Positions 1 through 58,268 of a DNA stretch of 64,000 nt are shown here, piece after piece. The notes under the pieces were generated by a model. That model worked only from the letters and a program-made list of their open reading frames with translations, did no database searches and was not told the DNA's origin. This DNA comes from Candidatus Omnitrophota bacterium (GTDB taxonomy: Bacteria > Omnitrophota > Gorgyraeia > Gorgyraeales > Gorgyraeaceae): the NCBI GenBank assembly GCA_018824145.1, contig JAHJHC010000032.1:5330-69329 (forward strand), given 5' to 3'. Position 1 is the stretch's first letter. Every line of letters starts with the position of its first letter. The position numbers were made by a program, and so were the translations under genes.

Positions 1-1445
1 AAATCTTTGGCAATCGGCTCTTTTAACTCTTCAGGAATTTTCGTATCTTCATATTTACATTTCGGACAAATCAACCTTATTAAACGCTGTGCAATAAATG
101 CCTCTACGCTCGAAGCTACCAGATACGGCTCAACACCGATATCTACCAATCTAGCAATAGCACTGGCAGCATCATTAGTATGAAGCGTAGAAAATATCAG
201 ATGTCCTGTCAAGGCAACACGAATAGCAATCTCAGCAGTCTCTGAATCCCTGACCTCTCCCACCATTATCACATCAGGATCGTGTCTTAGGATACTACGG
301 AGGCCGCGGGCAAAATCCAAACCGATTTCCGGCATAACCTGCATCTGGGTTATACCCGTAATCTCATATTCAATGGGGTCTTCTATAGTAATAATCTTAC
401 GTTCCTTAGTATTTATCTTGCTTAAACAGGCATACAGCGTCGTAGTCTTTCCGCTTCCGGTAGGGCCTGTAACAAAAATAATACCATGCGGTTTCATAAC
501 TAATCTCTCAAAGATCTGCTGATCTATACCTGAAAGCCCCAATCTCTCCAGACCAAAGAGCATCTGGGTAGGAAGGATCCTTATCACTACACTCTCCCCA
601 AAAGGTGTCGGTATGGTAGATATCCTCAAATCAAGCACTTGTTCCTGAACCCTTACAACTGCCCTGCCATCCTGCGGAAGACGGCGCTCTACAATATTTA
701 AATTAGACATGATCTTAATACGTGAAATTATGGCGTTTAAGAAACCTTTTATCCCCTGCGGGACATTGGCATCATAAAGCACACCGTCTATTCGATAACG
801 AAAATATACCTTCCCTCTATACGGCTCGATATGGATATCAGTGGCCCGTTTTCTCCACCCCTCTAAGATAATCTGATTAACCAGTTTTATTACAGAGGCG
901 TCTTCAGCTAATTTTTCAATATCTTCTACTCTTTCCTGGGAAATTTCTTGGGCACTTTCTTCAGACTTAAATCCCTGCTGCGAGTCAATACTCTCCAATG
1001 TCTCAGCTGCAGTCCCATAGTATCTGTTTAAGCCATCCGTTATATCCCTTGAGCATGAAAGGACCAATTCTATATCATAACCCAACTGTGTCCTTATCTC
1101 ATCCTGCGTCTTTATATCTAACGGATAATATGCCGCGATAGTCAAAGTCCTGCCTTTGATCTTTATAGGCAAAAATTTATAATATGAGGCGATCTTTACC
1201 GGGACCTTTTCTAACACAGCCTTATTAATGAGGCTTTTCTGCAGATTAAGATAACGTACTTTTAATTTATCTGCCAGGGCATTTAACATATCTTCTTCGG
1301 GGAGGACGCCTCTGGCGATTAAAATTTGTTGGAGGTTGCCGCCTGAGGCATCTATCTCCTTAATAAGTGCATCCAACGTCTTTTTGGAAACCAGCCCTTT
1401 CTCAACCAATGCTTCATACAAAAGTCTATCGTACTTCTTAAGCAT
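1..1445 (-). CDS. Type II secretion / type IV pilus assembly ATPase, GspE/PilB family. The start is in the window and the C-terminus runs off the window edge.
   Basis: The reverse-complement translation begins MLKKYDRLLYEALVEKGL at the ATG at 1445..1443, and the gene has a GspE_N-like N-terminus. Reverse-complementing 430-470 gives MKPHGIIFVTGPTGSGKTTTLYACL, a classic Walker A of secretion ATPases. The gene is absent from the ORF track because its stop lies outside the window. Confidence 0.85.
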   Translation of the reverse strand, partial: MLKKYDRLLYEALVEKGLVSKKTLDALIKEIDASGGNLQQILIARGVLPEEDMLNALADKLKVRYLNLQKSLINKAVLEKVPVKIASYYKFLPIKIKGRTLTIAAYYPLDIKTQDEIRTQLGYDIELVLSCSRDITDGLNRYYGTAAETLESIDSQQGFKSEESAQEISQERVEDIEKLAEDASVIKLVNQIILEGWRKRATDIHIEPYRGKVYFRYRIDGVLYDANVPQGIKGFLNAIISRIKIMSNLNIVERRLPQDGRAVVRVQEQVLDLRISTIPTPFGESVVIRILPTQMLFGLERLGLSGIDQQIFERLVMKPHGIIFVTGPTGSGKTTTLYACLSKINTKERKIITIEDPIEYEITGITQMQVMPEIGLDFARGLRSILRHDPDVIMVGEVRDSETAEIAIRVALTGHLIFSTLHTNDAASAIARLVDIGVEPYLVASSVEAFIAQRLIRLICPKCKYEDTKIPEELKEPIAKD

Positions 1446-1448
1446 ATA

Positions 1449-1898
1449 TTATCTCCCCTGCACGTATTCCCGATACCTCTCGATAATATCTTTCATATCA
1501 TCTTCGGAGACCAAAACCAATTTCAACCTGGACCCCCATGTTTCTTCTTCAGCTTTTTTCAAACCCCAGGCATCTAACGGATTGGTTATCGCAACAGTAA
1601 CTGTATCACCATCTTCCTCAATAGGAAAGCATTTATAATCTAAGATCAATGAGGGGCTGAATTTTTTTACAAAGCCCCAATCAACATATTTATATTTTAT
1701 ACTAATAAACGGGATATTAAACTGTTCGGATAACACCCCTAATAAATCCCTTTCTTTGATCTCTTTTTTTTCTACTAATATTGAGCCTAAAAATTTCTTT
1801 GTTGTTTGTTGTTCCCTTAAGGCATCCTGTAATTGCTCAGACGTTATAAGGCCCTTCTCTACTAAACTATCACCTAATCGTTTCTGTTTCTTATCCAT
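1449..1898 (-). CDS. Stand-alone MshEN / GspE N-terminal-domain protein, a candidate c-di-GMP-binding adaptor.
   Basis: This is a 149-aa protein. The segment KRLGDSLVEKGLITSEQLQDALREQ matches the RLGxxLxxxGxIxxxxLxxALxxQ MshEN motif. It sits 3 nt upstream of the GspE-like ATPase gene. Confidence 0.6.
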   Translation of the reverse strand: MDKKQKRLGDSLVEKGLITSEQLQDALREQQTTKKFLGSILVEKKEIKERDLLGVLSEQFNIPFISIKYKYVDWGFVKKFSPSLILDYKCFPIEEDGDTVTVAITNPLDAWGLKKAEEETWGSRLKLVLVSEDDMKDIIERYREYVQGR

Positions 1899-1910
1899 AA
1901 TCTCGCTGCC

Positions 1911-3323
1911 TTATTTCAATGCTCCTATAAGATAAAATTCCTGTTCCGACCTATTGTCCACCCTTCCATCTATTATCCTCTCACATCCTTCCAACGTCTC
2001 GTTCACTGTTACATAAGCACCTTTTTTGCCAGTATACGACTCTGCTACAGTAAACGGCTGCGTAAGAAAATATTGCAACTTTCTGGCACGTTCGTAAATT
2101 ATTCTGTCTGCAGGGGATAATTCATCGATTCCTATAACCAATACGATACGGCGCAACTCTTCATATTTCTGAAACATCTGAACGGCTGTATGAGCAATAT
2201 CTACATGGCGTTTTCCTACGATGTCGACATCAAGGTTGGAGCTTGATGATAATAAAGGATCGACAGCCGGATAAATACCTAGCTGAACCTTTTCACGGGA
2301 AAGGACCATCACGTTATCCATAAAGCTAAAAAGCACCACTACAGCAGGATCTGTCAGGTCATCAGCAGGAACATATACACATTCAATAGAAGTAATAGAC
2401 CCTCCTCCTTTTTGGGATGTCCTTATCCTTTCGTGAAATTCGCTTACCTCTGCCATCATTGTAGGCTGATACCCTGTCTCTGAAGGAACGCGGCCCATAA
2501 GTGTAGATGTCTCAGATCCGGCTTGAACATACCGAAAAATATTATCTACAAACAGCAAGACATCCTGGTTTTTCTTTTGAATGGCTTCTGCAAGGGTAAT
2601 CCCTGTTGCGGCTACTCCAAATCTAGCTCCGGGCGGTTCGTTCATCTGACCGAATACCATCTGCGTTTTTGAAAGGACACCTGATTCTGTAAGCTCATAG
2701 TAGAGTTCATTACCTTCACGAATACGTTCTCCTATTCCTGCGAAAACACAGGACCCTTCATGCATTTTTACGATTTTCTGAATAATTTCCAAAGTAAGTA
2801 CGCTCTTCCCCATACCAGCGCCGCCTAAGATCCCGGTTTTTGAACCTTTAACCAACGGAAAAAGAAGGTCGATAATCTTAAGCCCTGTTTCTATGACATC
2901 AAAGCTTTTTTTCTTTCTACCGCCCGTTCTGAGATAACTGCCCATATGAGTCTTGTGAATAGGCATTTTCTCAACACATTCAATTTTTCCTTTCTTGTCT
3001 ATAGGCTGTCCTAACACGTTAACCAGCCGGCCGTACATGCCTTCTCCAACAGGTATCTCTATACTCTTACCTGAATAATAAGCCTCTTGATTGCGGACTA
3101 TGTTAATCGTCGAGTTTATCGCAATACAGCGCGCAATATTCCCCGGCATGTGCTCGGAGACTTCCATAAAGACTTCTTCTCCATCAACTGTATGCGTCGT
3201 AACCAAACCAAATACATTGGGGACATCATCCTGGGACACAAACTTCACATCTACTACCGGGCCCTGGACTGAAATGACGCGTCCTACTATCTTTATATCT
3301 TTTTTATTTTTTTCCACGGACAT
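1911..3323 (-). CDS. atpD: F-type ATPase beta subunit.
   Basis: The protein has GGAGMGKSVL (P-loop), QMNEPPGARFGVAATGITLAE, YVPADDLTDPAVV, IYPAVDPL and a GIDELSPADR (DELSEED-like) segment, and aligns along its full length with F1 beta. Confidence 0.9.
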   Translation of the reverse strand: MSVEKNKKDIKIVGRVISVQGPVVDVKFVSQDDVPNVFGLVTTHTVDGEEVFMEVSEHMPGNIARCIAINSTINIVRNQEAYYSGKSIEIPVGEGMYGRLVNVLGQPIDKKGKIECVEKMPIHKTHMGSYLRTGGRKKKSFDVIETGLKIIDLLFPLVKGSKTGILGGAGMGKSVLTLEIIQKIVKMHEGSCVFAGIGERIREGNELYYELTESGVLSKTQMVFGQMNEPPGARFGVAATGITLAEAIQKKNQDVLLFVDNIFRYVQAGSETSTLMGRVPSETGYQPTMMAEVSEFHERIRTSQKGGGSITSIECVYVPADDLTDPAVVVLFSFMDNVMVLSREKVQLGIYPAVDPLLSSSSNLDVDIVGKRHVDIAHTAVQMFQKYEELRRIVLVIGIDELSPADRIIYERARKLQYFLTQPFTVAESYTGKKGAYVTVNETLEGCERIIDGRVDNRSEQEFYLIGALK

Positions 3324-4152
3324 ATCTCCCTGAAATCAGTTCGCGTAGAGCTCTATCAGCAAGCTCGTGACGGACACGAAAGTATTCTAACCTTACTTTT
3401 TTGTCTTCATCCTTCAGCTTCTCGCTCGATTCATCCAGGTGAATATAGCGGGCTGAAAATTCCGCTAGCCGGCTTACTCCAAAAATATAATGAAGCTTCT
3501 CTCCCATCCAAAGGTATACCAAATACTCGATCATATCTCCCGGCCTTGACTCCAGGATTATATCCTGATTTAAAGCGGGAATGGCCTTGCTTACATCAGG
3601 GGGGCGAAAAGGCAGAAAAGATACTGTTTCTATATGTTGCACTCCAAAGGAAACAGCTCGCGGATGTACCACTTTAACCGTATCAAACTCATTGGCCAAT
3701 GCCTTTTGGAAAATATAATCGCGCAGTTGCATTGCCTGTGTATGCCTTTCCTCATCCTGAATCCCGGGAAAGTTTACTGTCGAGTAGCCTTGTCCACTAA
3801 CATACATTTTTCCGCGCGCCCCGATAATGACCATTGTCGTAGGCATTTTCTGGGCCTCCTCAAGAGCTGCGTTTATAACTTTCATATTAAGTCCGCCCAA
3901 AAAACCGGCATCTGTGGTTATAGCAATAATAGCCTGTGCTCGTCCTTTGGCTTTCATGAAAACATGATTTACCGTATCCATATCAATATCTTTTAAAAAA
4001 CTTTCAATCGAAGGAAAAAATTCCTTAAAAACATTCAATCTCTTTTCCATCATATAATACTGTGCAATAGCAATCGATTTCAGCGTCTCAATCAAAAGCG
4101 ACAGCCCTTTATTGAATTCCATGTCTTTTTTTACGCTGATTAATGTCCTCAT
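3304..4152 (-). CDS. atpG: F-type ATPase gamma subunit.
   Basis: The 282-aa protein has AIITTDAGFLGGLNMKV (compare STDRGLCGGLN) and a C-terminal helix KVRLEYFRVRHELADRALRELISG typical of gamma. It lies between the alpha and beta genes. Confidence 0.75.
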   Translation of the reverse strand: MRTLISVKKDMEFNKGLSLLIETLKSIAIAQYYMMEKRLNVFKEFFPSIESFLKDIDMDTVNHVFMKAKGRAQAIIAITTDAGFLGGLNMKVINAALEEAQKMPTTMVIIGARGKMYVSGQGYSTVNFPGIQDEERHTQAMQLRDYIFQKALANEFDTVKVVHPRAVSFGVQHIETVSFLPFRPPDVSKAIPALNQDIILESRPGDMIEYLVYLWMGEKLHYIFGVSRLAEFSARYIHLDESSEKLKDEDKKVRLEYFRVRHELADRALRELISGRYVRGKK

Positions 4153-4153
4153 G

Positions 4154-5674
4154 CTATTTTATCTTTCCTGCAATATAATCTTTCAGGCAGCTTTCCAGCT
4201 TTTCAGCCATTTCCGTACTCATTTTTTTTGCAGTACGAAGATCACTAAAGAAAGAGGGGTGTACTTTTGTAATATACGGGCAGATATCCTCTCGGAATTG
4301 CAGGATCTGTTCTTTCGACAGGTTGTCAAGGAGCCCAAGATTCAAGGCATTCAAATAAACGATCTGGGCTTCCATTAAAACAGGCTGATTCCTATACTGA
4401 TTGATAAGGGCATTGATCGCATCTCCCCGTTTTATCTTGTCCTGAGCATCCTGTGAGATCCTGCCAGACTGCATCTGGGTCACTCTTAAAAGTTCTCTAT
4501 ACTGAATATAGTCCAGCCTTAATGTTTTACTGACCGAACGCATGGCATTCCACTGGGCCTTATTCCCGATACGAGAAACGGACAACCCAAAATCAATAGC
4601 AGGCATAAAGCCTTTCTTGAAAAGTTCGGTTGCAAAATAAAGCTGGCCGTCTGTCATCGAAACAATGTTAGTAGGAATATATCCGGTAAGGTCTCCCTGA
4701 AGGATCTCAACAATGGGGAAATATGTCATTGTCCCGTTCCCCCTTTCTTTGCTTAGATACCCCGCTCTTTCCATAAGCTGGGAATGTATATAAAAGATAT
4801 CCCCGGGATAAGCTTCACGGCCGGGAGCCCTTTCCAGGAGCAAGGATAATTGGCGATAGACCCAGGCATGCTTTGTAAGATCATCAAAGACTACAAATAC
4901 ATCCTTCCCATTGTACATGAAATATTCTCCCAGCATACTCGCAGTATAAGGGGCCAGATACTGCTCGCCGGTAGATAAGGACGCTACACCCGAAACAATA
5001 ATAGTGTATTTTAAGGCATCATGTTCTTTGAGTAAATCCACCACCTTGACAAGGCTGGAATACGGTTTTCCTATTATACAATAAATACAGATAACATCCC
5101 TTCCTTTTTGATTGAGGATGGCATCCATAGCAACCGTTGTTTTTCCTGTCTGACGGTCACCGATTAAGAGCTGGCGCTGGCCTTTGGCAGTAGGAATAAT
5201 CGCATCAAGGATCAATGTGCCTGTTTCAAATGTTTTATCAACAGGCTGCCTTTCCATAACCCCGGGAGCAACACGAAAGACAGGAAAGCTGTCATTAGCC
5301 TCAATCGGCCCGAGCCCGTCCTGAGGCATGCAAAGCCCGTTTACAATCCTGCCCACGAATGCATCACCTACAGGAAGGTCCAATGACTTGCCCTTGTTAT
5401 AGATCTCATCGCCTGCGCTAATATCCGCAACATCACCTAAAACAAGGACCTGGATATCTTCTTCAGTAAAGCCTATTACAAGGCCCAGTGTGCCATTTGC
5501 AAATTCAACGATCTGCCCGTTCATGCAAAAAGGCAACCCTTTGGCTATCACGACAAATTGCCGTACGGATTCAACGTACCCGACCTCTCTTACATCAAAG
5601 CCCGTTTGTGGTTTATCCATATCTTCTTTCTCACTACTCATCAGCCTCTTTTCCTGAGGCGTCAAGCATGGCAA
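4154..5674 (-). CDS. atpA: F-type ATPase alpha subunit. The true start is probably the internal Met near 5641.
   Basis: The protein has IGDRQTGKTTVAMDAILNQ, LLLERAPGREAYPGDIFYIHSQLMERA, PTNIVSMTDGQLYF and LSVSRIG, all hallmark F1 alpha motifs. Confidence 0.9.
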   Translation of the reverse strand: MPCLTPQEKRLMSSEKEDMDKPQTGFDVREVGYVESVRQFVVIAKGLPFCMNGQIVEFANGTLGLVIGFTEEDIQVLVLGDVADISAGDEIYNKGKSLDLPVGDAFVGRIVNGLCMPQDGLGPIEANDSFPVFRVAPGVMERQPVDKTFETGTLILDAIIPTAKGQRQLLIGDRQTGKTTVAMDAILNQKGRDVICIYCIIGKPYSSLVKVVDLLKEHDALKYTIIVSGVASLSTGEQYLAPYTASMLGEYFMYNGKDVFVVFDDLTKHAWVYRQLSLLLERAPGREAYPGDIFYIHSQLMERAGYLSKERGNGTMTYFPIVEILQGDLTGYIPTNIVSMTDGQLYFATELFKKGFMPAIDFGLSVSRIGNKAQWNAMRSVSKTLRLDYIQYRELLRVTQMQSGRISQDAQDKIKRGDAINALINQYRNQPVLMEAQIVYLNALNLGLLDNLSKEQILQFREDICPYITKVHPSFFSDLRTAKKMSTEMAEKLESCLKDYIAGKIK

Positions 5675-6377
5675 CTTGTCCCAATATCTTATGTCTCAAG
5701 CTGCCGTCCAAAACAAGACTCCCTATTTCAACAATAATCCCTGCTACGATTTTAGGATCCAGTTCTTCTTTTAAGTCCATATTACTTCCCAAAAGCTTAT
5801 TCACTTTCTTTAATAATTCGGCACGATCACTGTCACTCAACGGGAAAGCAGTCAAAACTTTTATTTCCTTGATCCCTTTTATTATCTTTAATTGACCTAT
5901 CTTCTTAAAGCCGTTTTCAATAAGGTCACGGACCCATCGCGAATGAACATCCTGCTTGAATTCCTCAGGCAAGGTATTCTGAATTGACTCACATGCCTTA
6001 TTGATTGCCTCTTTTGCTATTCTTTCATCTAATTCAGCGATAATGACCTTGCGAGACCTGTCTGCCTGTTCAACAATCTCCTCACTTCGGACTCGCGCCT
6101 CTTTTAATATCTTATCCCTTTCTGCCGCTGCCTGATTAGCAATATCTAAACGTTGTTTTTCTGCCTCATTACGGGCCACGGACAACAATTCTTCAGATTT
6201 ACGTTTTGCCTCCTCAAGCCGTCTATTTATATCCTTTTCTTTTTTACTATAATCCTGGTTTAATTCTTCAAGATGTTTTGTAGCCAAAACGACATTTCTA
6301 TTCAATATATGTTTAAACATATATATAAGCCCTATAAATATAACTATCTGGAACAATACCAAGGAAATTATAAGCAT
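5634..6377 (-). CDS. F-type ATPase b subunit fused to a delta (OSCP) C-terminal domain.
   Basis: It has an N-terminal TM helix and a long charged coiled coil typical of subunit b. The C-terminus VLTAFPLSDSDRAELLKKVNKLLGSNMDLKEELDPKIVAGIIVEIGSLVLDGSLRHKIL resembles the delta C-terminal domain. At 247 aa it appears to lack a full delta N-terminal helical bundle. Confidence 0.6.
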   Translation of the reverse strand: MLIISLVLFQIVIFIGLIYMFKHILNRNVVLATKHLEELNQDYSKKEKDINRRLEEAKRKSEELLSVARNEAEKQRLDIANQAAAERDKILKEARVRSEEIVEQADRSRKVIIAELDERIAKEAINKACESIQNTLPEEFKQDVHSRWVRDLIENGFKKIGQLKIIKGIKEIKVLTAFPLSDSDRAELLKKVNKLLGSNMDLKEELDPKIVAGIIVEIGSLVLDGSLRHKILGQVAMLDASGKEADE

Positions 6378-6398
6378 CTTATCCTCTCTTTCGGGATA

Positions 6399-6614
6399 TT
6401 ACCTTGCGAACAACTGAAACACTACCAATATTGCAATAATTGCCAAGGCCTGAGCAAAGACCAGGGCTATCACTAATGCCGTAAAAATCTTAGGGGCAGC
6501 AGACGGATTCCTGCCCAATGCGCCTATACTGGCAAAACACCCTGCAGCAAACACCGCACACGGCCCCAAGATACATACTGAAAAAATTAAAATAAGTGAA
6601 ATATTACGATCCAT
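6399..6614 (-). CDS. atpE: F-type ATPase c subunit homolog lacking the ion-binding carboxylate.
   Basis: The 71-aa protein is a two-helix hairpin with an RNP loop (compare RQP). Helix 2 reads LVFAQALAIIAIL and aligns to LVEALPIIGVV of canonical c subunits. Q55 is encoded by the CAG codon at 6452..6450 on the minus strand, which I verified from the DNA. Confidence 0.65.
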   Translation of the reverse strand: MDRNISLILIFSVCILGPCAVFAAGCFASIGALGRNPSAAPKIFTALVIALVFAQALAIIAILVVFQLFAR

Positions 6615-6861
6615 TGATTATAGGAGATGATGATTCCTCGACGACAATAGTTACTTTATTCTGATCGACTTTAACGATCCCTCTCTGTATATTAAATCTC
6701 TCTTCATCTATAAACAACGCACCTGAAATAAGCCGGCTTAAAATACGTTTGTGAAACGGTATTATCTCAAATACACCTTGCTCTCCAGGAACAATCACAC
6801 TCTGTGCCTTCCCTTTAAAAATAATCTTTCTGGGTGTTAATACATCCACATCTAATTGCAT
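6604..6861 (-). CDS. atpC: F-type ATPase epsilon subunit, N-terminal beta-sandwich domain only.
   Basis: The 85-aa protein contains LDVDVLTPRKIIFKGKAQSVIVPGEQGVFEIIPFHKRILSRL, which resembles the epsilon N-domain. It overlaps the c gene by 11 nt. Confidence 0.55.
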   Translation of the reverse strand: MQLDVDVLTPRKIIFKGKAQSVIVPGEQGVFEIIPFHKRILSRLISGALFIDEERFNIQRGIVKVDQNKVTIVVEESSSPIINGS

Positions 6862-6902
6862 TTTAACCTAGTTTTTTAAATAATACAAGACCCTATGATT
6901 TT

Positions 6903-7715
6903 TTATTCAGCCTTACTTTTATTTTCCTTGGAATCCGCCTCCGGAAATGCGGATTTCTTGGCCCCTGAAAGGCTATCTTTAGTAAGACGCGCCTGATGCT
7001 GCCACGTAAAAAACAACACCCCTGCCAAAAGGCCGCTAAATATAATAATAACGAATATTACTATCCAGGTCATGGTCTTTGAAGGAGAATCCGCCTTTAT
7101 GTTGGCATCTGCCAACATACTAGGAGAAGGCGGCCCTCCGGCAGTAACAAGGATCTTCTCCATCTTAGCAATATCTTCATCTATATTTTCTATTGCAAGT
7201 AAATTCTGACGGTAAATACCAATGTGACTCTGACGGCTAACTGACTCATCAGCCTGTGTAGTTCCAATTTCACTTAAACGTTGAAAAATACTATTGGCTA
7301 TCTCCTCAGCCTTCAGATAATACTCTGTGTCTTCAAGATTAGCTAGAATCGAGTCTGTGCGTTCCCTGAAATCAAGCAATTTAGCATCAGCTACAAGCCA
7401 GACATCTCTTACCTCGATTTCAAAGACTTTAACTTCTGAAGGTGACAGTTCCACCGTCTCTTTATACAAATAGAAGATAGATCTATCAGTATCATATTCT
7501 AAGTCCAAGCCAGCTGAATTTATAATATCATCGGGTTTTATCTCTATTGGTAAATACTTTTTAACCGGGGTAGTTTGTGTTTTTGTCTTTGATGGGTTAA
7601 CTACAACAATCTTAAAGGTCACGCTTTCAGCGGCCTTTAGTTCTCCTGAGTTTATAAAACTCCACACTGAAAACACTAATAAACCCCACACTACATTTTT
7701 TAAAATTACCCGCAT
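6903..7715 (-). CDS. Hypothetical single-pass membrane or periplasmic protein, the first gene of the ATPase-like operon.
   Basis: The 270-aa protein has an N-terminal signal or anchor helix (VVWGLLVFSVWSFINSG) and a C-terminal TM (MTWIVIFVIIIFSGLLAGVLFF). An AGGAGG SD lies about 8 nt upstream of the ATG. It shows no similarity to subunit a. Confidence 0.5.
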   Translation of the reverse strand: MRVILKNVVWGLLVFSVWSFINSGELKAAESVTFKIVVVNPSKTKTQTTPVKKYLPIEIKPDDIINSAGLDLEYDTDRSIFYLYKETVELSPSEVKVFEIEVRDVWLVADAKLLDFRERTDSILANLEDTEYYLKAEEIANSIFQRLSEIGTTQADESVSRQSHIGIYRQNLLAIENIDEDIAKMEKILVTAGGPPSPSMLADANIKADSPSKTMTWIVIFVIIIFSGLLAGVLFFTWQHQARLTKDSLSGAKKSAFPEADSKENKSKAE

Positions 7716-7801
7716 CTCTTTTTCCTCCTGTTTATTATAGTTGAATAATAACTTTTATACTAATATACCATATAATATACCCTATATACCACCTAAAGTG
7801 C

Positions 7802-7834
7802 AAAAAAAACTTGCCTTTTTTAAAAAGGCAAGTT
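7802..7834 (-). terminator. Intrinsic (rho-independent) terminator downstream of the giant gene.
   Basis: The stem CTTGCC/GGCAAG (7810-7815 and 7827-7832) has an AT loop. On the minus strand it is followed by a U8 tract, the complement of A8 at 7802-7809. Confidence 0.6.
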
Positions 7835-7857
7835 TCTCTTTTGGAAATTTGGAAATT

Positions 7858-7930
7858 GGAAATTCGGGACACATCCCAATTTTCACGCGTAGCTACAAAG
7901 CTTGAAAATTGGGATGTGTCCCGAATTTCC
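7858..7930 (-). repeat. A 27-bp perfect inverted repeat with a 19-nt loop, forming a large stem-loop in the giant-gene 3' UTR and flanked by short tandem GGAAATT repeats.
   Basis: Positions 7858-7884 (ggaaattcgggacacatcccaattttc) are the exact reverse complement of 7904-7930. The loop contains the palindrome GTAGCTAC. GGAAATT occurs three times on the left flank and CGAATTTCC twice on the right. Confidence 0.8.
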
Positions 7931-7983
7931 CGAATTTCCCTTACGCGCATCCAGCATCAAACATTGAGATTCCATAAAATACC

Positions 7984-10900
7984 TTACTGCATTAGTACAA
8001 TAGGATCTTCAATCCCGCCAATTTTACTTTCAAAAGTCTGCAACACTACATCAACTGTTCCATTTATCGCGTCTGTCTTATTGCGGATCTCTTTTACAGT
8101 AGGTGATTCTGTCAAGGCCTCTTCTAAGATTGTGCCCATATCATACCCTTCCTCACCAGCTAAGGCCTTTATCCTATCCGAGACCTCATTAATTGCATTA
8201 GTGATTACAGCAGTAGGACCTTCTTTCGACATAATCTCAGGCAAAGCATCTACGGAACTCTTAAGATTCTTTAGTGTGAGCGCAATATTTATACTATCAC
8301 CGGAAATCAATACTGCCTCTAATGCCTTTATAGCCTCCAATGCCTTCTTGGCTGCACGTGATGCCTCTGGAGCTGCGGCTGCAAGTCCTGCTACTGTAGT
8401 AATACTCATGGATTCAACCATCCCTGAACCTACCAAGACTGTACCAGTCTGCTGTTCAGTGACCATGTAGGTATAGGCCTTACCAGCAGGGAAGTTTCCG
8501 TCAGCTTCAACCTTTGCTATATACATTCCCGGTGTATCCTGGGTCATAAGTAGCCCTTCTTCAATAGCATCTCCGTCCCAGGCATAAATATATACCTGCG
8601 GCAAGAGATTCGGCAACCCTATACATTGTAGAGTAATAGTATCTCCTGTTAATGCCGGATCAGGAAATACTGCAACACTCCACTCGTATTTTCCAACCAT
8701 ACCTGAACCAGTGACCAGTCCGCCTGTCTCTGATTCTTGGATAATGAAAGAGTATGCTTTACCTGCTTCAAAACTATCATCAGCTTCAAATTCATACACA
8801 TAAACTCCGTCGCTACTCTCTTTCATTATACTACTATAGACAAGGTTACTATTAACATCGTAAATATCAATTACAGGGGCTAACCCAGGTTGACCTTGGC
8901 AGTTTATGGTTACGGTTTCATTGGTCAATACTGGATTAGGGGACACACTAGCACCCCACGAATATTTCAATGCAGTTTCCATAAGGGTTTCACCTGCTTC
9001 TACAGCCATATCAGCACCTTCCTGCAAGTCCTCAATCGCTGATTGTGTCCTTGTCTCAAAACTGGTCAGTGTCATATCAACCATTGCAATCATCTCATCA
9101 GTCTTAGAATCAATAAGGGCTGACTGTTCATTCATCTTTGTCTCAATAGTCTCAGTCTGTGCTGAAACTATATCTACGACTTCATCTGTCTTTTGATCAA
9201 GAAGGATAATCTGTTGATCCATAGAAGCCTGTATCTCGCCGCTAATCACTGACATTGGTTTATCTAACACATAGTCGATCTTATCGTCCATGTTTTCAAG
9301 AGAGTCTTCCATAGATGCCATGGCAGTAGGTATAGTAACAGTGAATGATACAGGCGTTGTGAAGTTACCTCCAGTACCAAGCACAATGTAAGTCTTTACA
9401 GTATATACCTTACCTGCCTGCAAGGTATCATAGGCAGTTCCTCCGGAAGTATGAGATGTCGGAGTCCAGGTCTGTGGGAAAAAACCAGCAAAATCAATAG
9501 GAGTCTGGATTTCACCTGTCTTATAAGTTGCGCAATCTGCTATATTCTCAAACTGGAAGCGTTCCACTTCTTGCTCTAAATCAGGATCCCAACTCGTACC
9601 AAGCCAGATATCAACAGTCGACGGTATATCTTCATAGAAGTAGTGCTTCTCAGGATCCCCTGCTTGCGGTGTATCTTCTTCCTGTACTAAGATTGTCTTT
9701 CTCTTGATCTGTTCAAATCCATCGTAAATCTTTACATCAACAACCAATGCCCCAGGAACCAATGAACCATCTCTTTCCAGCCATGAAGTTATATCCAATC
9801 TGTCAGTCTCTACATCATAAGAAAACTCTGAGTACGCCCTCCAGATATGTACAACCAATGTTTCCATAGTACGGAAAATCTTCCTGTCTCCCCATACTTT
9901 ACCTTCTTCGTCCACTCCGGTAAAATATGTTACTTCAATTGGACCATAATCTTTGTGGGTGAAGGTTGCTGTCCAATTGTCAGCTGTAACATCATGGTTT
10001 TTGGGCGAACTAACACCTGTTGCGTCCCAGCCAGGCCATCCACTTGTTGAGACTTCACTTACTGTCAACCCATTTATATGCTGGTTCGTAATTAAATCTC
10101 GTATATCCCATGTAATCGTATAGTAATCTATCTTCATTGTAGTGGATACACCAGCTGGAAAACCTGGATCAACATATGGACCCTCTATAAATACGTCAGG
10201 GTCATTGTGGTCATATATACGGATCTTTACAGTATCTGAACGATCATTAGCAATCTTCCAGTCAAATGTACCAGTATTATCCCAGTCTAATGCCTGCTGC
10301 CCTAGATCATTTTTAATAAGAATCTGATTGTCAGGCACGCCGTCTGCCGGGTCTATATCCGCGAAATTATCTTTTGAATAGTATATATCTACTTTAGGTA
10401 TAGTACCAAATGTTGTCCAGGTAACTTCACGTACTTCATTTGTAACCCAGCGACACTCATAGTCTAAAACTTCTGCCGGATCCCCGCCTTCTTTCAATGC
10501 TATGGCAGGAGAAGTAAGAGTGAAATCACCCTGAATCTTAAATTCGCCGGAATCGTCATTTACAATGCTCTCCAACAGAGTCCTTGCATCAGCTACTTTT
10601 ATCACGCAGGTAGGTGAGATATAATCCTCTACTATCCATGTGAATGAATGCGTTGCACCCGGATTCTGAGGATCATATACACCGTTGGTTACGATACCTG
10701 TATTAGCAGTGCCAGGATCATTATCTTCATCTATAGGAACAAACGGGCCTCCTACACCGTTCTGCGATATGGTTATCTTCACCTGCGGCATTGTTCCGCC
10801 CCATTCCCATGTAATGTCGTGAGAACTGGCAACTGCCCATTTTTCATCTGCAACAGGTGCATGAGTTATTATATAACCTATTATCTCAAAACTTTGGCTT

Positions 10901-13900
10901 TCGCCTATAATATCTGTCTGATCACCTACTGGAGAGGTTCCGTCTCTTGCATCAGCTACTCTGATAATAACATTTGCACTCGCCTCATCAGGAACCGTCC
11001 ATGTGAAAGTATGCTCTGCGCCTGGTCCGCCTGCGCCTGCGCCGTTAGTTACTAAGCCGGTATTTGCAGTACCAGGGTCATTGTCCTCGTCTACAGGATT
11101 AAAAGGCCCTGTAAGTCCATTGGTAGAATAAGTAATCTCAACTTCAGGAATAGTCCCTACCCAATTCCATTTTATATCCTTATCCTGTCCTATTTCCCAA
11201 GAAGGACCTCCTACAGGTGCATTAATCGTAATCTCACCCATGATCCTGAATAAGCCTGATGTATCAACTGCATCTGAATCCAATGAACTTTCTACGCGCA
11301 GTTTTACAGTATCCCTGGCAATATCATCAGGTACTGTCCAGTCAAATGAACCTCCACTTGCTCCATTAGCCACTATACCAGTATCTGCAGTCTGAGGATC
11401 ATTATCTTCATCTATAGGATCGAATGGTCCTGTATCACCGTTTAAAGAATATGTTATCTTTACATCCGTTACTGTACCGGTATTAGTCCAGGTAATTTGG
11501 TACGAATCACCAACAACCAGGTCCTGGCCCGTAATATTAGGATCTATTGTAAACTTGGCGCTGATCTTTGCATACGGTGCTGTAGTAAAGCTGTTTCGGT
11601 TCGGAAAACCAGTTTGCGCATTAACAGTATGAGGTGCAACACCATAACAATCTGAATCGTCATTGGATTCTACCTTGATCTTTAACTGGCTAGAAATGAT
11701 ATCAGGAACCTTTGGTACCCATAACCATTCTTCGTCTGTCGCAGGAGTTGAACTTCCTGATATAGCTGTCCATGAACTACCGCCGGTGAGAGAATAATAC
11801 ATAGTCACGTTGCCAAGAGTAGGCACTGTTGTATCTGTAATTGTCCACGTGATATATCTATTGGTATCATTAACAAACCACTGTTCATCACTCACTGGAG
11901 AAGTAACAATTATATCAGGCATAATTTTGAATGGACTAGCTGAATCCTTATAAGCATCTGTATCAGTCGGATCATCATAATTCGGATCTTCTACCCGCAT
12001 TATGAGCCCCATGTTATCTGTAATCAACCTATAATCAAGCGTAGTAGGTATGGTCCAGTCATAAATGCCTGCAGTACCAGATGACGGTTGAACACCAATC
12101 ACATACTTTATTGTAGGATTGGCTTGTAGATACACAGTGAGTTTTACTGCTTCCTGGGTCCTCGCTGTATCAGAATATGTTATACCTGTCTTAGTCCAGG
12201 AGATAGTCTCAGTATGTCCCAGAATCCATTTCTGTCCGCCATTAGGTGAAATACTAGTAAAGTTGACCCGGATAGTGAACGCATCAGAGATATCATAGAC
12301 ATCTGGATCATCATGTTTAGAGATACGGATTCTCATACTTTCAAATCCGACTGCCTCCGGCGGTATATTCCAGCCAAAATTACCTACGCTCCCGACAAAT
12401 TGCTCGGACGAGGTTATAACCTTTATATCCGTCGGGTCCTGCGGATCGCCAGGATCAGTAAAGTCCGGATTATTATATGCATATTCTATTTTGACTTTAT
12501 CAAAACTACTCGGGCCGTATCTCGTCCATTTGATAGTCCCCTGAGTACCAGCCTCCCAGACATATCCAGTCTCCGGTTCCTCAACCACAACCCTTGCCAT
12601 AATCTTAAACGGATTATCTGTTACATCTTTGACATCCGGAAATGCTGTATTATGGTCTTTTACCCGTATAAGCACATTCTCTGCAGTTAAAGTTATTGGT
12701 ATATCCCACGGATATTCTTTAGCACCGCTATTACTATAATTGGTTATTATATCTACCCAATCATTAGGATTGGATGGCGGTGTTGAACCAAGGTAATAAG
12801 CTATGTCTACATTAGTAATATTACCCTGCGAAGTCCATTTTACATAATGAGTTAAATCACATCCCCATTTTTCCATGTCAAGAAAATCAGGTGCTGTACC
12901 GCCATTGGGTTCAGTTACAGTAATTGTACCTTGTATAGTGAAGTCAACTGAAGTATCAAAACAATATGCAGAGTAAGTAGCATTCGCATCAGAGACACGG
13001 ATCCTATAGGTATGTGTAAGGTCTATACTATTAGGGATCGGCCAATCATAACTATTAGTAGCATCATTGGTAATCCCTGATATAACTGTCCCTGGCCATG
13101 TGTCATACGGAGCATCTTTCTTATATTTAATATCTACTGAAGTTGCTATATCTTCAGAGGTCCAAGTTACAGCATGCGTATTACCGGCTATCCACGGCAC
13201 TGTTCCGTCAGGAGTTAGTACAGTGATGTTATCTATTATCCAGAATGCTGTATCTGATTCATCCTTTACTAATTCTTGAGGATCGCTGGGATCCTTAAGC
13301 CGGATAAAGCAGTTAGTTGATCTACCTTTATCAGTAGGCACTGACCAGGAGTATTCTGTAGCACCTTCCACATAAGTCATATATTCATAATTTTCTTCTA
13401 CGTCCCCTGTTGTAGATAAGTAAATATCCACTCTGGAAATCGGACCGATCATAGTCCATATAATCTTTGAATCCTGATCAAATTGACCTGCCTTCAATTT
13501 GCTGCTAGAGTCATTAGGCTGCGTTACTGTTAACTGTCCGTGTACAGTAAACGGAGCTGATTCAGTAGTAGCACTGGAATCCTGTGCGTCACTTATTTTA
13601 ATCTGTGCCTCGTAACTTATTGCATTAGGAACTGTCCAAGGATATTGATTATTATTACTTATGGTTGAGCCGTCATTTACAAAATCAAAGTTATCCTGAT
13701 CATCTAAGCGGTATCGTATATACACATTGAGAATGGTACCTTTTGTGGTCCATTCTATAGTCTTTGCACTATTAGCCAGCCACCTGTCAGTTGAAATTGG
13801 ATGTAAGAATGTGAATCCGCCCCGCACAATGAACTCGGGTGAAAAACCTGTTACAAAAGATTTTTGATTCGTATCTTTTATCCTTATTATTGTATGCGTA

Positions 13901-16900
13901 CTGGCTACAGTAGTTACTGAATTCCAAGTATATGTGTTTGCATCCTGAGATACTGCCAAAGAAGGTTCAATTTCTGTCCAGGGCCCGGATAGACCATTAC
14001 TAGAAAATTCTATCTTAACATTAGTTATAGCGCCGGAAACCGTAAAGTTAATATCTTCCTGCTCCTGGCAAATCCACGGGTCTCCTGCTTGAGGCCGCGT
14101 AACTACTATATTAGCAATCTTAAAAACAGGCGAAGTATTTGTCACTTCATTATACAATTCATCTGTCACACGCACTACTACATTACTACTAATTGTAGGA
14201 GGTACGGTCCAGGGATAGGATTGGTCACTGGCAGTAATATCCGTATCAATGGTTATCCAATCTACGCCAGTACCTACACCGTCATAATCATAGTCTAATG
14301 TTACCTCAGGTATCGGCCCTGTTGTTGTCCAGGTAATATTCTTCTGCGCGCCGGAATCCCAAACCTGATCCAGCTGCGGGCTGGTAATCAAGAGCTTACC
14401 TCTTACGTAGAAAAAGTCTGAAACAGCCGCTATAGTAGGCTTTGTAGCGTCTGAATTAACTATCCTGACTTTCACTGAATCGCTTATGACGCTGGGAACG
14501 CTCCAGGTAGTTGAATTCTCTGTTAAATCCTCTCCGTCAGTAATATACTGATATGCACCGCCATTTATCGTAGGTTCTGACCACAATACGTCAACAAGTG
14601 GGATATTGCCTGTCTTGGTCCAGGAAATTGTCTTCTGATCCAATACATACCAGGTTTCTCCGCCTACTGGTGCACCAAGGACTATCTTACCTGTTATAGT
14701 GAAATTACCTGACTCATCTTTTACGTCATTAGGCTTGGTAGTATCTGCTATCCTGACATTGATCTCGTCAGACATCTGATCCGGGATCTTCCAGGTGAAA
14801 CTACCGTCTGAGGCAGAAATATTACTTGCCTGGCCTACAGGATCAACCTGCGGGTCTTCCCCTGCTGCCCAACCTAGTACCCAGCCAAAATCTCCGCCAG
14901 CTACTGAATATTCAATATTTACATTATTTACAACGCCTGTTACTGTCCACTCTATATCGTGATTATCATTTACTACCCATGCATCACTGGTAGTAGGACT
15001 GTCAAGGGTTATCTTTGCCCTTACCTCAAACGAGTTAGATGTATGTTTTGCATCTGCGTTATCCGGATCACTGATCTTTACCAAACACGTAGTTGATGCA
15101 ACATCACTCGGTACAGTCCATGAATAAGCACCTGAATTGGAAACAAACCCTGTACCGGGATTTCCAGCGCTTACATAGTCAATATTACGCCAAGCACCGC
15201 CATTATTGCTTGAGAATTCAAGTTTCGCAATAAGTATATCAGCTCCGTTTGGCGTCCAGGTTATGGTGCGACCTGAAGCGGAAATAACATAAGCTGGTAT
15301 AGCGTCTAACACAAATCCGCCCCTGATCTTAAAGGGAACTGATTCGTCTTCTACTTTATCAACAGCTGTCTCAGTATCCTCATCTGTTATCTTGATCTTG
15401 ACACTTTCAGATACGTGATCAGGTATTGATGACCAAGTATAGGATTGACCTGATGCTGCTACAGGCATATTTGAGGCATCTACCAGATCATATCCCTGGC
15501 CATAGTCATAGTAGATGTTTACGAGCCCTATACTTCCTGTATAGGACCAGGTGATGTTCTTATCTGTTGTCCCGACTTCCCAATTAGAATTTGAATCAGG
15601 TTTTACTACAGTTATGCTGCCTATAATGTCAAAACTCGGAGAATCGCCGTAAACACTGGAATTGACGTTATCAACTACTCTAACCACTACGTCATCACTT
15701 ATGGCATCAGGAATATTATCCCATGTGTAATCACTGGTAGCATCTACATTACCGGATACATCCAGGTCTTCAAACGAGCCGCCGTCTACACTGTAGTATA
15801 ACTTCACATAGCTAACCTGTTCAGAACCATTTAGGCTCCAGGAAATAGTGTGTCCATCTGAAAGGACCACTAAATTGCTGTCTTCTACAGGTTGTGAAAC
15901 TGTTATTACAGGCCTTATAGAGAATGGATATGTTGATACGCTATAGACATCAGTGGCTGCACCAGTATGATGCAGAGTATCTGATACTTTTATATAGCAG
16001 TTTTCTGAATTTTCGTCTTCTACTGTCCATTGATATGTATTGGAGCCATCTCCGTAAGCACCTCCGCCGTCATGATCCAGTATAATATCAATGTAATTCC
16101 CACCAGCTGAGGTCTTATATTGTATATCTACATTAGTCACGTCACCTATAGCTGTCCATGTAATATTTTTACTTTGACCTTTAAGCCAAATCGGTTTTGG
16201 AGTTTGCGAATCAGGGGCAGTGACATCCAATGAACCTACGAATTTAATATTATAGGGAACTACTGCCTTCACATCAGAATCATATTCGTGGCTGATTCTG
16301 ATCTTCACCTGATCATCTATGTCATTAGGCACGGTAAATGGATACACCCTTCTGACACCATGCGCAGAGTTAGCCACTGAAGTGAAATAATTAGTCTCCA
16401 GTTCATCCGCAAATGCATTTGTAGAGTATTCTATCTTAATCGGCCCGAATGTCCCTGTGGGTGTCCATTCAATATCATACGAAGTATTAACTGACCACAT
16501 AAGACCGCTCTCTATAGGAGACTCCCAAACAATGTCACCTTCTATCTCAAACGCCTCTGAATCATCAGTTACTTCTGTATTATCCACATCAGTTATCCTT
16601 ACTATAGCTGCCTTAGTATCATCAGTGATAGAATCAATCGCAGGGGCCCATAGATTATATGAACTAGACCCATACTCAAAATCCACTGTTGCTATATTTG
16701 TCCACGGTGCAGATCCGGTCTTGGAGAATTGAATTATCACATCACCCATATCTGCTGTCCCTAATGTAGTCCATTCTATAGTAAAGGCAGTTCCTACTGT
16801 CAATACATCCGTTGTCTCAGGTTCTGTAACAGTAATGCCGCTTTTCATCATGAAGCTATCAGACTCACCACATGCAGCTGCCAATGAAGCATCTGCTACC

Positions 16901-40008: not shown

Positions 40009-40515
40009 TTAATCGCTTATTAAGACCTCGAGCTGATTCTCAGATTCTTCTTCGGAGTCAGGCTCAGGTCTTTTTATTCTTTTTGCAGCCCTCACAAAAC
40101 TAATACTTTTTGCGAGCCATTCTTCAGTAATCCTGTTTCCTCTGTTTGGCTTAGTTACCTCATGGTAAGTCACCTTCACAGCATCGCCGACTTTTATATC
40201 GTTTAAACCCTGTTTATGCACCACCTTTGTATCTTCATCAATAAGAAAAGAATAATCAGTATTTGTCTCGGCATCACCTACGGCAATAACCGTGGGATTA
40301 AATCTGGGTGTAAAATAAATAACCTCTCCTACCAACTCTTTTTCTTTAATCATCTCTTTCACAGGAGACTGTTCGCCTTCTCCTTGCTCTTCGTCGTCTT
40401 CCTGAGCAACTCCTGCCCCTATGCCTCCTAAGAGAAAAACCGCTATTAAAAATATGAGACATACAAAAATCTTTTTCATCCCGCTATCCTCCTTACTTTT
40501 AAAAATAATATTCAT
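40009..40515 (-). CDS. Small secreted protein of unknown function, located immediately upstream of and co-oriented with the giant gene.
   Basis: The 168-aa protein has a signal peptide (KKIFVCLIFLIAVFLLGGIGAGVA), an acidic linker, a beta-rich domain and an acidic C-terminus. There is a 15-nt gap to the giant-gene ATG. Confidence 0.6.
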   Translation of the reverse strand: MNIIFKSKEDSGMKKIFVCLIFLIAVFLLGGIGAGVAQEDDEEQGEGEQSPVKEMIKEKELVGEVIYFTPRFNPTVIAVGDAETNTDYSFLIDEDTKVVHKQGLNDIKVGDAVKVTYHEVTKPNRGNRITEEWLAKSISFVRAAKRIKRPEPDSEEESENQLEVLISD

Positions 40516-47652: not shown

Positions 47653-47654
47653 CG

Positions 47655-56254: not shown

Positions 56255-56257
56255 ATT

Positions 56258-57533: not shown

Positions 57534-58268
57534 TTATCTGTTAAAAAACAGGCCTTTTTTCTTCTTTTTCTCTTCTTTCTTTAAAGGTTCGGTTTCTTGC
57601 GCGACAATTTTTTTAACGCTTTCTTCTTTTACCTCCACCACCTCCTGCTCTTCCTGAACAGGTGATTCCGCAGCCTCATCTTCTACTTCATCAGGTACGG
57701 CTTTCACTTCTTCTTTGATAATTTTCTTCTCTGATTCAATAGCCTTATCTCCTACCATTCCTTCTTCAACCTGAGTCCCAGACTCTTCTGGTTCCTCAGA
57801 TATCATTTCTTTTCCCAGGCTGACAAACGTATAATCCTTTTTTTTCTTTTCGTCTACATGCCAGCTCAAAACACCCCGCATGTTTTCACTGGAAATCTGA
57901 CCTCTCCAAAACGCAATACCTTTCTCTTCACTGGTCTGCATTGTCTCCCAGACAACGATTTCTTTATCTTTACCTTTAAGTCTTACCGTATAACCACTGG
58001 ACGGAAATCCTTCCGAAGATAATTTCTCCGAAATAATCTTATTATTTTCAAAACGCAATGTATCACTCTCTTTTTTATCGGTCTTGTCTGACATTTCTTT
58101 CAGCTCAATCTGCCACACAGTATTGTTAAGCCCGGCTTTTGCCTCAGAAATCATTTCTTGTTCTGTCCTGGGCTCTTCATCTTTTTCTTTTTCCCGCGCC
58201 ATACAAACCGAAACTAATCCTAGAGTTAAAATTATAAATGCGGAACATATTGAAATCTTCTTAATCAT
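57534..58268 (-). CDS. Secreted WETMQ-domain protein with a Glu-rich C-terminal tail (paralog 2).
   Basis: It has a signal peptide ([24 protein letters not shown]). The core ..[83 protein letters not shown] is followed by an acidic tail. Confidence 0.6.

Follow-up and report, generated by a model that had tools for sequence, protein, structure and literature searches.

An F-type ATPase cluster with no detectable subunit a gene, conserved in Omnitrophota between giant-protein genes and a GspE-type ATPase with predicted cyclic di-GMP inputs

This work concerns a stretch of 64,000 nucleotides (hereafter the window) from a Candidatus Omnitrophota bacterium of the class Gorgyraeia (assembly GCA_018824145.1, contig JAHJHC010000032.1, positions 5,330 to 69,329 of the forward strand), and in particular the string of genes at its low-numbered end, where a cluster of F-type ATPase genes is followed by a small gene for a stand-alone MshEN-domain protein and by the gene for a GspE/PilB-type secretion ATPase (Table 1). 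Every open reading frame (ORF) of note in the ORF list of the 64-kb window lies on the minus strand. The exact MshEN protein and the protein called p270, encoded ahead of the ATPase cluster, are present at NCBI under the name 'Candidatus Omnitrophica bacterium' as KJ957_01490 and KJ957_01525, respectively. An initial annotation described the beta-subunit, MshEN and GspE genes as co-operonic, on the same strand and closely spaced with no terminator between them. Their coordinates proved correct; the 13 nt reported between beta and MshEN is a difference of coordinates and the true spacer is 12 nt (1910-1899, GGCAGCGAGATT on the coding strand), while the gap of 3 nt (TAT) between MshEN and GspE stands as reported. 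A Shine-Dalgarno-like GGGGAG lies ahead of GspE within the 3' end of the MshEN gene, and 465 nt separate the beta stop (1911) from the GspE start (1445). A consensus scan of the minus strand from 3323 to 1446 found no terminator-like site, in agreement with the initial annotation. Over positions 1-8200, neither promoter-like sites (19, against 21.0 +/- 4.9 in shuffled sequence) nor terminator-like sites (8, against 6.4 +/- 2.8) are in excess. The co-operonic arrangement of the three genes is supported by this tight spacing and by the conserved gene order in relatives described below.

Table 1. Principal features of the analyzed stretch and the matches that identify them.
Feature	Coordinates	Strand	Length and evidence
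GspE/PilB-type secretion ATPase, N-terminal 481 of 718 residues	1..1445	-	ATG at 1445; cut by window edge
Stand-alone MshEN-domain protein	1449..1898	-	149 aa; NCBI KJ957_01490, annotated 'hypothetical'
F1 beta	3323-1911	-	470 aa; Pfam ATP-synt_ab 2.5e-65
F1 gamma, divergent	3304..4152	-	282 aa; Pfam ATP-synt 1.5e-28, 100.8 vs 39.9 bits; NCBIfam gamma 69.6 vs 194.45
F1 alpha	4154..5674	-	Pfam match; NCBIfam atpA 525 vs 484.45; ORF start TTG 5674
b-delta fusion	5634..6377	-	247 aa; N-terminal transmembrane helix, coiled coil, C-terminal part of delta/OSCP only
Subunit c	6399..6614	-	71 aa; Gln55 at the ion-binding carboxylate position
Epsilon	6604..6861	-	85 aa, beta-sandwich only; Pfam ATP-synt_DE_N 2.5e-15
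p270	6903..7715	-	270 aa; signal/transmembrane helix, beta-sandwich, helical bundle, conserved C-terminal transmembrane helix
Intergenic spacer with two very stable hairpins	7716..7983	-	268 bp; RNA fold -99.5 kcal/mol, z = -8.47
Giant ORF	7984..39993	-	10,669 aa; N-terminal signal anchor, Ig-like repeats
SurA_N-cyclophilin peptidyl-prolyl isomerase, periplasmic chaperone-like	58261..59757	-	Pfam Pro_isomerase 1.2e-54, SurA_N_2 1.5e-09
GspD/PilQ-type outer-membrane secretin	62020..63882	-	Pfam Secretin 7.8e-54, Secretin_N 2.6e-19

A comparison with related loci shows that the order of these genes is not peculiar to the window. The 120 best relatives of the beta protein are 70-100% identical to it, and their sources are named Omnitrophota or Omnitrophica, save for one Deltaproteobacteria. 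A genome-collection scan with the single beta protein gave three Omnitrophota loci together with three canonical operons, the latter serving as controls for the detection of subunit a. Look-ups of beta homologues gave four loci, of which two are near-identical copies of a single stretch; the order giant ORF-(p270)-epsilon-c-b-delta-alpha-gamma-beta-[MshEN]-GspE·PilZ-GspF is common to all four. A metagenome scan with a beta alignment added 80 further loci at 63-74% beta identity, which were annotated by phmmer with the window proteins as queries. When loci with beta proteins at least 95% identical were merged, 50 non-redundant clusters were found to have at least 3 kb of sequence downstream of beta. 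GspE comes after beta in 49 of these 50, at beta identities down to 63%; it is preceded by one or two MshEN-only genes in 36 clusters and follows beta directly in 13, and the one remaining cluster carries a PilM/N-like gene in place of MshEN/GspE. The beta-to-MshEN spacer has a median of 8 nt (no more than 30 nt in 85% of cases), and the MshEN-to-GspE spacer a median of 5 nt. Because the same order is found in 49 of 50 clusters, the juxtaposition is a conserved operon-like feature rather than an accident of one contig. The arrangement recurs far above chance and is real and conserved across Omnitrophota. The initial annotation had allowed that the neighbors might be an ordinary type IV pilus (T4P) locus unrelated to the ATPase; this is not so, as the link to the ATPase genes is conserved among relatives.

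The initial annotation had also proposed that a GspF/PilC-like platform protein and pilins be sought beyond position 1, and both are encoded there. An exact look-up of the 149-aa MshEN protein returned a 7.8-kb public contig, L001, which is 100% identical to window positions 2657-1 (2657 bp) and runs 5.2 kb past window position 1. The full GspE gene at 1213-3369 of this contig encodes 718 aa with the architecture MshEN-T2SSE-PilZ, and the 481 codons within the window match Pfam T2SSE (1e-111) and MshEN (5.4e-17). It is followed by genes for GspF, a Peptidase_MA_2 protein, a GspG major pseudopilin, two N-methyl prepilins (minor pseudopilins) and a GspK-like protein, and a GspK domain is present in the L001 locus. 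Scores against curated models fall between systems: GspE reaches 585.6 against the NCBIfam GspE cut-off of 630.25 and 558.1 against the PilB cut-off of 675.65, GspF scores 377.8 against a cut-off of 424, above its score for the PilC model, and the score of the major pseudopilin, 141.4 bits, exceeds the NCBIfam GspG equivalog cut-off of 88.85. Relatives carry GspJ, GspK and a PilM-PilN fusion in addition; no GspC, GspL or GspM was found at the locus, the PilM-PilN fusion occurring in relatives instead. On these model scores the machine is best called a hybrid between a T2SS (type II secretion system) and a T4P, with a GspG-type pseudopilus. In one lineage (loci L008 and L009, 15265-21404), the place of the peptidase and pseudopilins after GspF is taken by genes for a response regulator, for three histidine kinases, one of them with CHASE4-PAS, and for an ABC substrate-binding protein, which may form a sensory module controlling the same locus.

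The outline of this locus has already been published. In the same phylum, Seymour et al. 2023 (PMC10066038) reported genes for a non-respiratory F-type ATP synthase homologue adjoining type-4a pilus (T4aP) clusters in 56 of 111 Velamenicoccia species, with both systems within 10 kb on 57 of the 66 contigs carrying them and 'symbiotic' loci in every class, V. archaeovorus being among the examples. Those loci show the same F-type ATPase and GspE/PilB juxtaposition within 10 kb as does the window, which is thus a further example of them. On model scores, two assignments differ. PMC10066038 labels alpha as Mycoplasma 'type 2/3', whereas by hidden Markov model (HMM) scores alpha and beta here pass the atpA and atpD models and fail the Mycoplasma ones; it also calls the neighboring system T4aP, whereas here the major subunit passes the equivalog for GspG, a T2SS pseudopilin. 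The main text of PMC10066038 makes no mention of c-di-GMP (cyclic di-GMP) or PilZ, the term 'c-ring' is absent from its supplementary text, and we found no statement in it on a missing subunit a, a stand-alone MshEN gene or a giant ORF directly upstream.

The subunits of the F-type complex have diverged to different degrees. Alpha and beta pass the ordinary atpA and atpD cut-offs (550.2 bits against 462.85 for beta), while gamma, b-delta and epsilon score below theirs and c matches no NCBIfam model. The Walker A, catalytic GERIREGN, Walker B and DELS..D motifs of beta are invariant among 35 family members, and the best PDB matches of both alpha and beta are canonical bacterial F1. The alpha3beta3 catalytic core, intact and canonical in sequence, looks fit for catalysis. 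The alpha ORF taken from TTG 5674 overlaps b-delta by 41 nt; ATG 5641 removes the overlap and is plausibly the true start, fitting where homology to other alphas begins. In b-delta, the Pfam OSCP match (2.8e-14) covers only profile positions 99-165 of 172, ATP-synt_B is matched at 0.0028, and all NCBIfam b and delta models are under cut-off. The C-terminal helices of canonical epsilon inhibit hydrolysis; epsilon here is without them, with an NCBIfam match to profile positions 2-80 of 130 only.

The greatest departures from a synthase concern the parts that would conduct ions. Every ion-translocating c subunit carries Glu or Asp at one site in helix 2. In the window protein this site is occupied by Gln55, which aligns on the conserved Glu of the 9itj c subunit and of the yeast V-ATPase c, and among 56 family members the column reads Q23 E19 A5 L4 T3 V1 S1, leaving 37 of 56 without a carboxylate. 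The column has an entropy of 2.07 bits, where helix 2 averages 0.93, and at least 16 changes are required on a neighbor-joining beta tree. The loop R35-N36-P37, by comparison, is invariant in the family. In F-ATPases the cytoplasmic R-N-P loop of c contacts gamma and epsilon, and a variable carboxylate beside an invariant loop suggests that the c-ring has been kept, but not for binding ions. One locus, L045 (1599-2062), has two tandem c genes, one with Glu and one with Gln at the carboxylate position. An HMM built from the E. coli a subunit and those of the three control operons (L005-L007) gave no match to subunit a better than E 0.2 over the 64-kb window and about 85 Omnitrophota loci with 10-kb flanks, and recovers the gene in all three controls (E <= 3e-83), where it sits inside each operon. 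From the absence of subunit a at the locus, together with the altered c, epsilon and delta, we infer an ATP-hydrolysing rotary complex without ion translocation; the F-type ATPase of this locus probably cannot move ions.

Several observations weigh against this reading and could instead fit an ordinary housekeeping F1Fo ATP synthase that stands by chance beside secretion genes, with subunit a elsewhere and a meaningless neighborhood. Alpha and beta pass the equivalog cut-offs and keep invariant catalytic residues, so that on sequence alone the alpha/beta core could belong to a working synthase; beta scores 479 bits to 2qe7 and 349 bits to the M. mobile G1-ATPase. About a third of the family (19 of 56) keep Glu in c, the gene for subunit a may lie in another part of the genome, and co-orientation is weak evidence where all window genes lie on one strand. 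We nevertheless regard a housekeeping synthase as very unlikely. Subunit a is inside all three control operons but neither in the window nor in any of the flanks searched, the carboxylate has been replaced in most c subunits, the window's among them, while the rest of c is conserved, and in 49 of 50 clusters, over the whole range of beta identity, the F-type genes keep their place between the giant ORF and GspE. Surveys of Omnitrophota also separate 'respiratory' from 'symbiotic' F-type clusters (PMC10066038), and a 2026 preprint, which finds alpha/beta and no recognisable gamma in most of 176 complete genomes, reports V/A-type ATPases to be common in most of the class Gorgyraeia, the class of the window.

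Two known types of additional F-type ATPase were considered and rejected as assignments for the cluster. N-ATPases (AtpDCQRBEFAG operons) are likewise a second, divergent F-type cluster with a rearranged gene order, but they keep subunit a and an ion-binding c, whereas the window locus has no subunit a and has Gln in c; the alternate F1Fo models (alt_F1F0) score 474.7 against 752 for beta and 510.6 against 750.5 for alpha. The Mycoplasma F1-like X0 ATPases offer a closer functional parallel. The Type 2 enzyme drives M. mobile gliding with very large surface proteins (PMC11864180), and Type 3, defined in PMC3369863, is required for the MIB-MIP antibody-cleavage surface system (PMC12994834). Like the window locus, these are extra F1-type ATPases in host-dependent, genome-reduced bacteria, without a proton-conducting Fo and genetically tied to large surface-protein machinery, which they appear to drive through ATP hydrolysis. 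The models for MMOB1660/1670 and MSC_0618/0619 are nonetheless all under cut-off (for alpha, 387.6 against 600 with MMOB1660 and 298.8 against 520 with MSC_0619 on curated HMM scores). The composition also differs, as the Mycoplasma clusters have seven genes, namely alpha-, beta-, gamma- and epsilon-like genes and three for unique proteins (two of which lie in the membrane, with 3 and 12 transmembrane helices), and lack c and b/delta, whereas the window cluster keeps c and b-delta and its alpha and beta are closer to canonical F1. With the Mycoplasma models not matched and the cluster composition different, the relation is one of analogy and not of membership.

Upstream of epsilon, p270 and the giant ORF appear to be parts of what is often one gene. 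p270 corresponds to the C-terminus of a long ORF in 31 of 45 resolvable loci, these ORFs usually leaving the locus with more than 1500 residues in view; in the other 14 loci it is separate, with a long ORF just upstream in 12, so that in 43 of 45 the sequence directly upstream of the ATPase genes belongs to a long ORF. The gap from the p270 stop to epsilon is often only 2-30 nt. These arrangements suggest that p270 is the C-terminal membrane-anchor module of the giant surface protein, split off in the window. Its most conserved segment is the transmembrane helix TWIVIF.IIIF.GLLAGVFFFTW, which hints at a specific partner inside the membrane. No Pfam family matches p270, and its AlphaFold (AF2) model, with a predicted local distance difference test score (pLDDT) of 89.1, shows a beta-sandwich, a helical bundle and a long transmembrane helix. 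In the giant ORF, the sole Pfam match among 6000 residues scanned is a Kre9_KNH Ig-like domain. Protein-level repeats of more than 1000 aa are visible by eye in it, and Tandem Repeats Finder (periods up to 500) found no DNA-level tandem arrays. Giant genes have been described in another context in a preprint by West-Roberts et al., where a Tad/T2SS-like system precedes the giant gene and small PilZ genes come behind; an ATP synthase is never mentioned there.

The spacer that separates the giant ORF from p270 in the window contains two hairpins. The first (about 7939-7852) has a stem of about 38 bp with GGGAAATTC sub-repeats and may be a small mobile or REP-like (repetitive extragenic palindromic) insertion that detached p270 from the giant ORF. 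The second (about 7836-7802), listed by the terminator scan, has an 18-bp stem followed by a U-run, like an intrinsic terminator; an AT-rich stretch and AGGAGG come after it, just ahead of the p270 ATG. The promoter scan called no site in 7716-7800, and a promoter upstream of p270 is an impression by eye only. A tie between the giant protein and the ATPase is made less certain by this terminator-like hairpin, which parts the giant ORF from the ATPase genes in the window, and by the fold of p270, for which Foldseek returned only generic beta-sandwich matches in the PDB (E > 0.07) that give no functional clue.

The position of the giant ORF or its anchor module immediately upstream of the ATPase genes would also be expected if the F-type complex were an export or unfolding ATPase for the giant protein, comparable to FliI/FliH/FliJ of type III systems, with no mechanical role after export and with the GspE system as an independent pseudopilus machine. 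F1 alpha and beta are homologous to FliI/SctN, and NCBIfam FliI models score 167-193 bits with both. The c-ring with its invariant loop, the membrane-anchored b-delta, gamma and epsilon are, however, the equipment of a rotary motor in the membrane and not what a soluble export ATPase would carry, the N-terminal signal anchor of the giant protein fits Sec export, and the locus contains no export-gate homologue, all of which makes this alternative quite unlikely.

The small protein encoded between beta and GspE was said in the initial annotation to carry an MshEN motif and to suggest a switch responsive to c-di-GMP. An HMM search of the 149-aa protein was positive with both models concerned. Pfam MshEN is matched at 1e-10 (41.9 bits against a gathering score of 23.1), and the NCBIfam model NF053729, named 'cyclic di-GMP-binding domain, MshE-related', is matched along its entire 53 positions with 64.3 bits, where the cut-off is 38. 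The protein aligns over its full length with residues 1-145 of V. cholerae MshE (5htl; E 1.7e-14). Its AF2 model (pLDDT 91.6) superposes best, by Foldseek, on c-di-GMP-bound MshE 5htl (TM-score 0.83-0.90, root-mean-square deviation 1.7-1.9 A over 137-138 residues). The first half-site, RLGDSLVEKGLITSEQLQDALREQ, is a strict match to the 24-residue pattern RLGxx(L/V/I)(L/V/I)xxG(L/V/I)(L/V/I)xxxxLxxxLxxQ. Compared with the MshE, PilB and PilF proteins (Wang et al. 2016, PMC5013675), the protein has the whole fold, comprising the 53-residue four-helix site and the C-subdomain, but in the window the domain that looks competent for binding is a separate polypeptide and the N-domain of the ATPase itself is degenerate, scoring 30.8 against 38 for the c-di-GMP motif (NF053729), with N-terminal motifs that fail the relaxed pattern in 51 of 52 GspE proteins.

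The second half-site, a 24-residue motif that the pattern places behind a 5-residue spacer, argues against c-di-GMP binding. In this half-site, FLGSILVEKKEIKERDLLGVLSEQ, F, K and E at positions 1, 10 and 11 replace R, G and a hydrophobic residue, so that unlike MshE it starts FLG rather than RLG and is without the turn Gly, and it fails the relaxed pattern of Wang et al. in all 41 family members. Small deviations in the motif abolish c-di-GMP binding in XpsE (PMC5013675) and in PilF GSPII-A (PMC12002112). Position 1 of this half-site is F in 34 of 41 members and otherwise L or Y, and an aromatic or hydrophobic residue there might still stack on guanine; residues G3, L6, L17, L21 and Q24 are nearly invariant in both half-sites. 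As the FLG-type half-site is fixed across the family, it appears to be a conserved variant rather than the result of decay. Since it departs from the published pattern, binding by the MshEN protein is only predicted. The motif claim of the initial annotation is thus borne out for the first half-site and not for the second.

GspE itself would provide the other input. The C-terminal PilZ domain of the window-lineage GspE, encoded on L001 and outside the window, keeps RRTYAR and NISAGG, and intact RxxxR and [DN]xSxxG motifs are found in the PilZ domains of 50 of 52 GspE proteins. Judged by these motifs, PilZ is a stronger and more universal predicted c-di-GMP input than the MshEN protein. A partial precedent for this GspE is found in the PilB-PilZ-FimX system of X. 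citri (PMC8389850; PDB 7lko), where PilB is controlled through PilZ, which contacts the PilB N-domain, the third-best structural neighbor of the MshEN model; this N-domain does not bind c-di-GMP. The Xanthomonas PilZ, however, is a separate, degenerate adaptor with FimX as the sensor, whereas here PilZ belongs to the GspE chain as its C-terminal part and retains both motifs. One or two extra stand-alone PilZ genes (119-192 aa) lie between GspE and GspF or nearby in L048, L053, L055, L064, L071 and L085, and these would be further c-di-GMP receptors at the locus. We found no described GspE/PilB-PilZ fusion or stand-alone MshEN regulator in the open-access literature. The c-di-GMP reading of the MshEN protein and GspE is supported in silico by the HMM matches, the predicted fold and the PilZ motifs, so that the proposed switch stands as a prediction with the off-pattern half-site counting against it.

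The small protein could alternatively be a decayed remnant of an ancestral multi-MshEN GspE, with no signaling role, in which case any c-di-GMP control would be through PilZ only. The 13 clusters that have GspE-PilZ without the gene, the failure of the second half-site to fit the relaxed motif and the three tandem MshEN-type domains of Thermus PilF, one of them non-binding (PMC12002112), are in line with such an origin. Decay is harder to reconcile with the clear purifying selection on the protein. A search for its relatives gave 181 proteins, and among the 120 listed most are close to 150 aa in length and 45-74% identical to the window protein, with MshEN as the only Pfam domain. Every named taxon among the matches listed is Omnitrophota or Omnitrophica, and the proteins are annotated as 'hypothetical' or, wrongly, as 'PilB'. 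The near-invariant residues of both half-sites, the fixed aromatic or hydrophobic position 1, the pass in the NCBI c-di-GMP-motif model and the confidently predicted MshE-like pocket fold likewise speak against decay. The gene is present in two copies in the L061 lineage, and L075 (11377-13035) encodes a 552-aa GspE without PilZ whose N-terminus is an MshEN of the stand-alone type (RLG.../FLG...), no separate MshEN gene being present; this natural fusion ties the small MshEN protein functionally to GspE. Decayed MshEN remnants were sought in the 216-834-nt beta-GspE gaps of 7 loci without the gene, and no tblastn match was better than E 0.08. Overall, a remnant without function appears unlikely, and we retain the reading of the protein as a predicted c-di-GMP receptor.

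The genes that lie upstream of the giant ORF in the window are of diverse kinds. Directly upstream of it, at 40512-41780 (minus strand), a 422-aa ORF carries an IS200-like Y1 transposase domain (Pfam Y1_Tnp, 2.4e-10), followed by a transmembrane segment and a C-terminal domain with a 'WETMQ...W.G' motif that recurs in two small proteins, both secreted, encoded at 57534-58268 and 60305-60736. The minus strand between 42104 and 55314 encodes five paralogues of 617-763 aa, each with a polytopic N-terminal domain of about 400 aa, which had no Pfam match in the three proteins scanned, and C-terminal arrays of tetratricopeptide repeats (TPR). Two B12-binding radical SAM genes (46156-49130) are interleaved with these paralogues, and upstream of the block lie a GT9 glycosyltransferase and an LPG_synthase_TM protein (55301-57499). 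The TPR-membrane, radical SAM and GT9 genes may together form a modification or glycosylation module for the giant protein.

Taken together, the locus presents a string of genes that runs from a giant surface protein through a divergent F-type ATPase and a small MshEN protein to GspE-PilZ and then GspF, a metallopeptidase and the pseudopilins GspG-GspK, with the secretin and the peptidyl-prolyl isomerase chaperone further upstream. In the scheme that we favor, the F-type complex would be an ATP-hydrolysing, non-chemiosmotic rotary motor anchored in the membrane. The motor would serve the surface apparatus, most likely via the transmembrane anchor of the giant protein, the GspF platform or both; the Mycoplasma F1-like ATPases that serve surface machines are a comparable case. 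The GspE assembly ATPase would be turned on or off by c-di-GMP, which would act in cis by way of PilZ and in trans by way of the small MshEN protein. Taken jointly, the claims that this string is conserved in Omnitrophota, that its non-chemiosmotic rotary ATPase serves a surface apparatus and that its GspE is switched by c-di-GMP are, in our view, reasonably probable. The mechanistic coupling of the rotary ATPase with the giant protein and the GspE machine is putative.

A stronger version of this coupling can be envisaged, in which an F-type rotary ATPase without an ion channel has been re-wired as a mechanical actuator at the cell surface. The c-ring and b-delta would engage the C-terminal transmembrane helix of the giant adhesin, the GspF platform or both, ATP-driven rotation would move or tension the giant protein during pseudopilus assembly, and the F1 head would be coupled to the GspE hexamer by the small MshEN protein in a c-di-GMP-dependent way. 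We consider a coupled machine of this kind, taken as a whole, rather unlikely. If true, it would be a second, independent instance of an F1 motor driving a giant surface leg, known only from Mycoplasma gliding, and the first case of a rotary ATPase and a secretion ATPase in one machine.

In conclusion, what is new here beyond the published descriptions that we found is the variable c carboxylate together with the absence of subunit a from the locus, the upstream location of the giant ORF or its anchor module, the GspE-PilZ fusion and the family of stand-alone MshEN proteins with an FLG half-site. Omnitrophota are abundant, ultra-small bacteria that are suspected predators or parasites of other microbes. 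In these organisms the locus unites, in one conserved unit, giant surface proteins with a second F-type ATPase of the 'non-respiratory' kind and with a pilus or secretion machine, and the GspE ATPase beside the F-type genes carries two predicted c-di-GMP inputs. One practical consequence is that chemiosmotic ATP synthesis should not be deduced from genes of these genomes that are annotated as 'F0F1 ATP synthase subunit alpha/beta'. If the motor does work on the surface apparatus, it would be one of the rare rotary ATPases turned from bioenergetics to mechanics, and the locus would offer a concrete way into the study of how an uncultured phylum attaches to its hosts.

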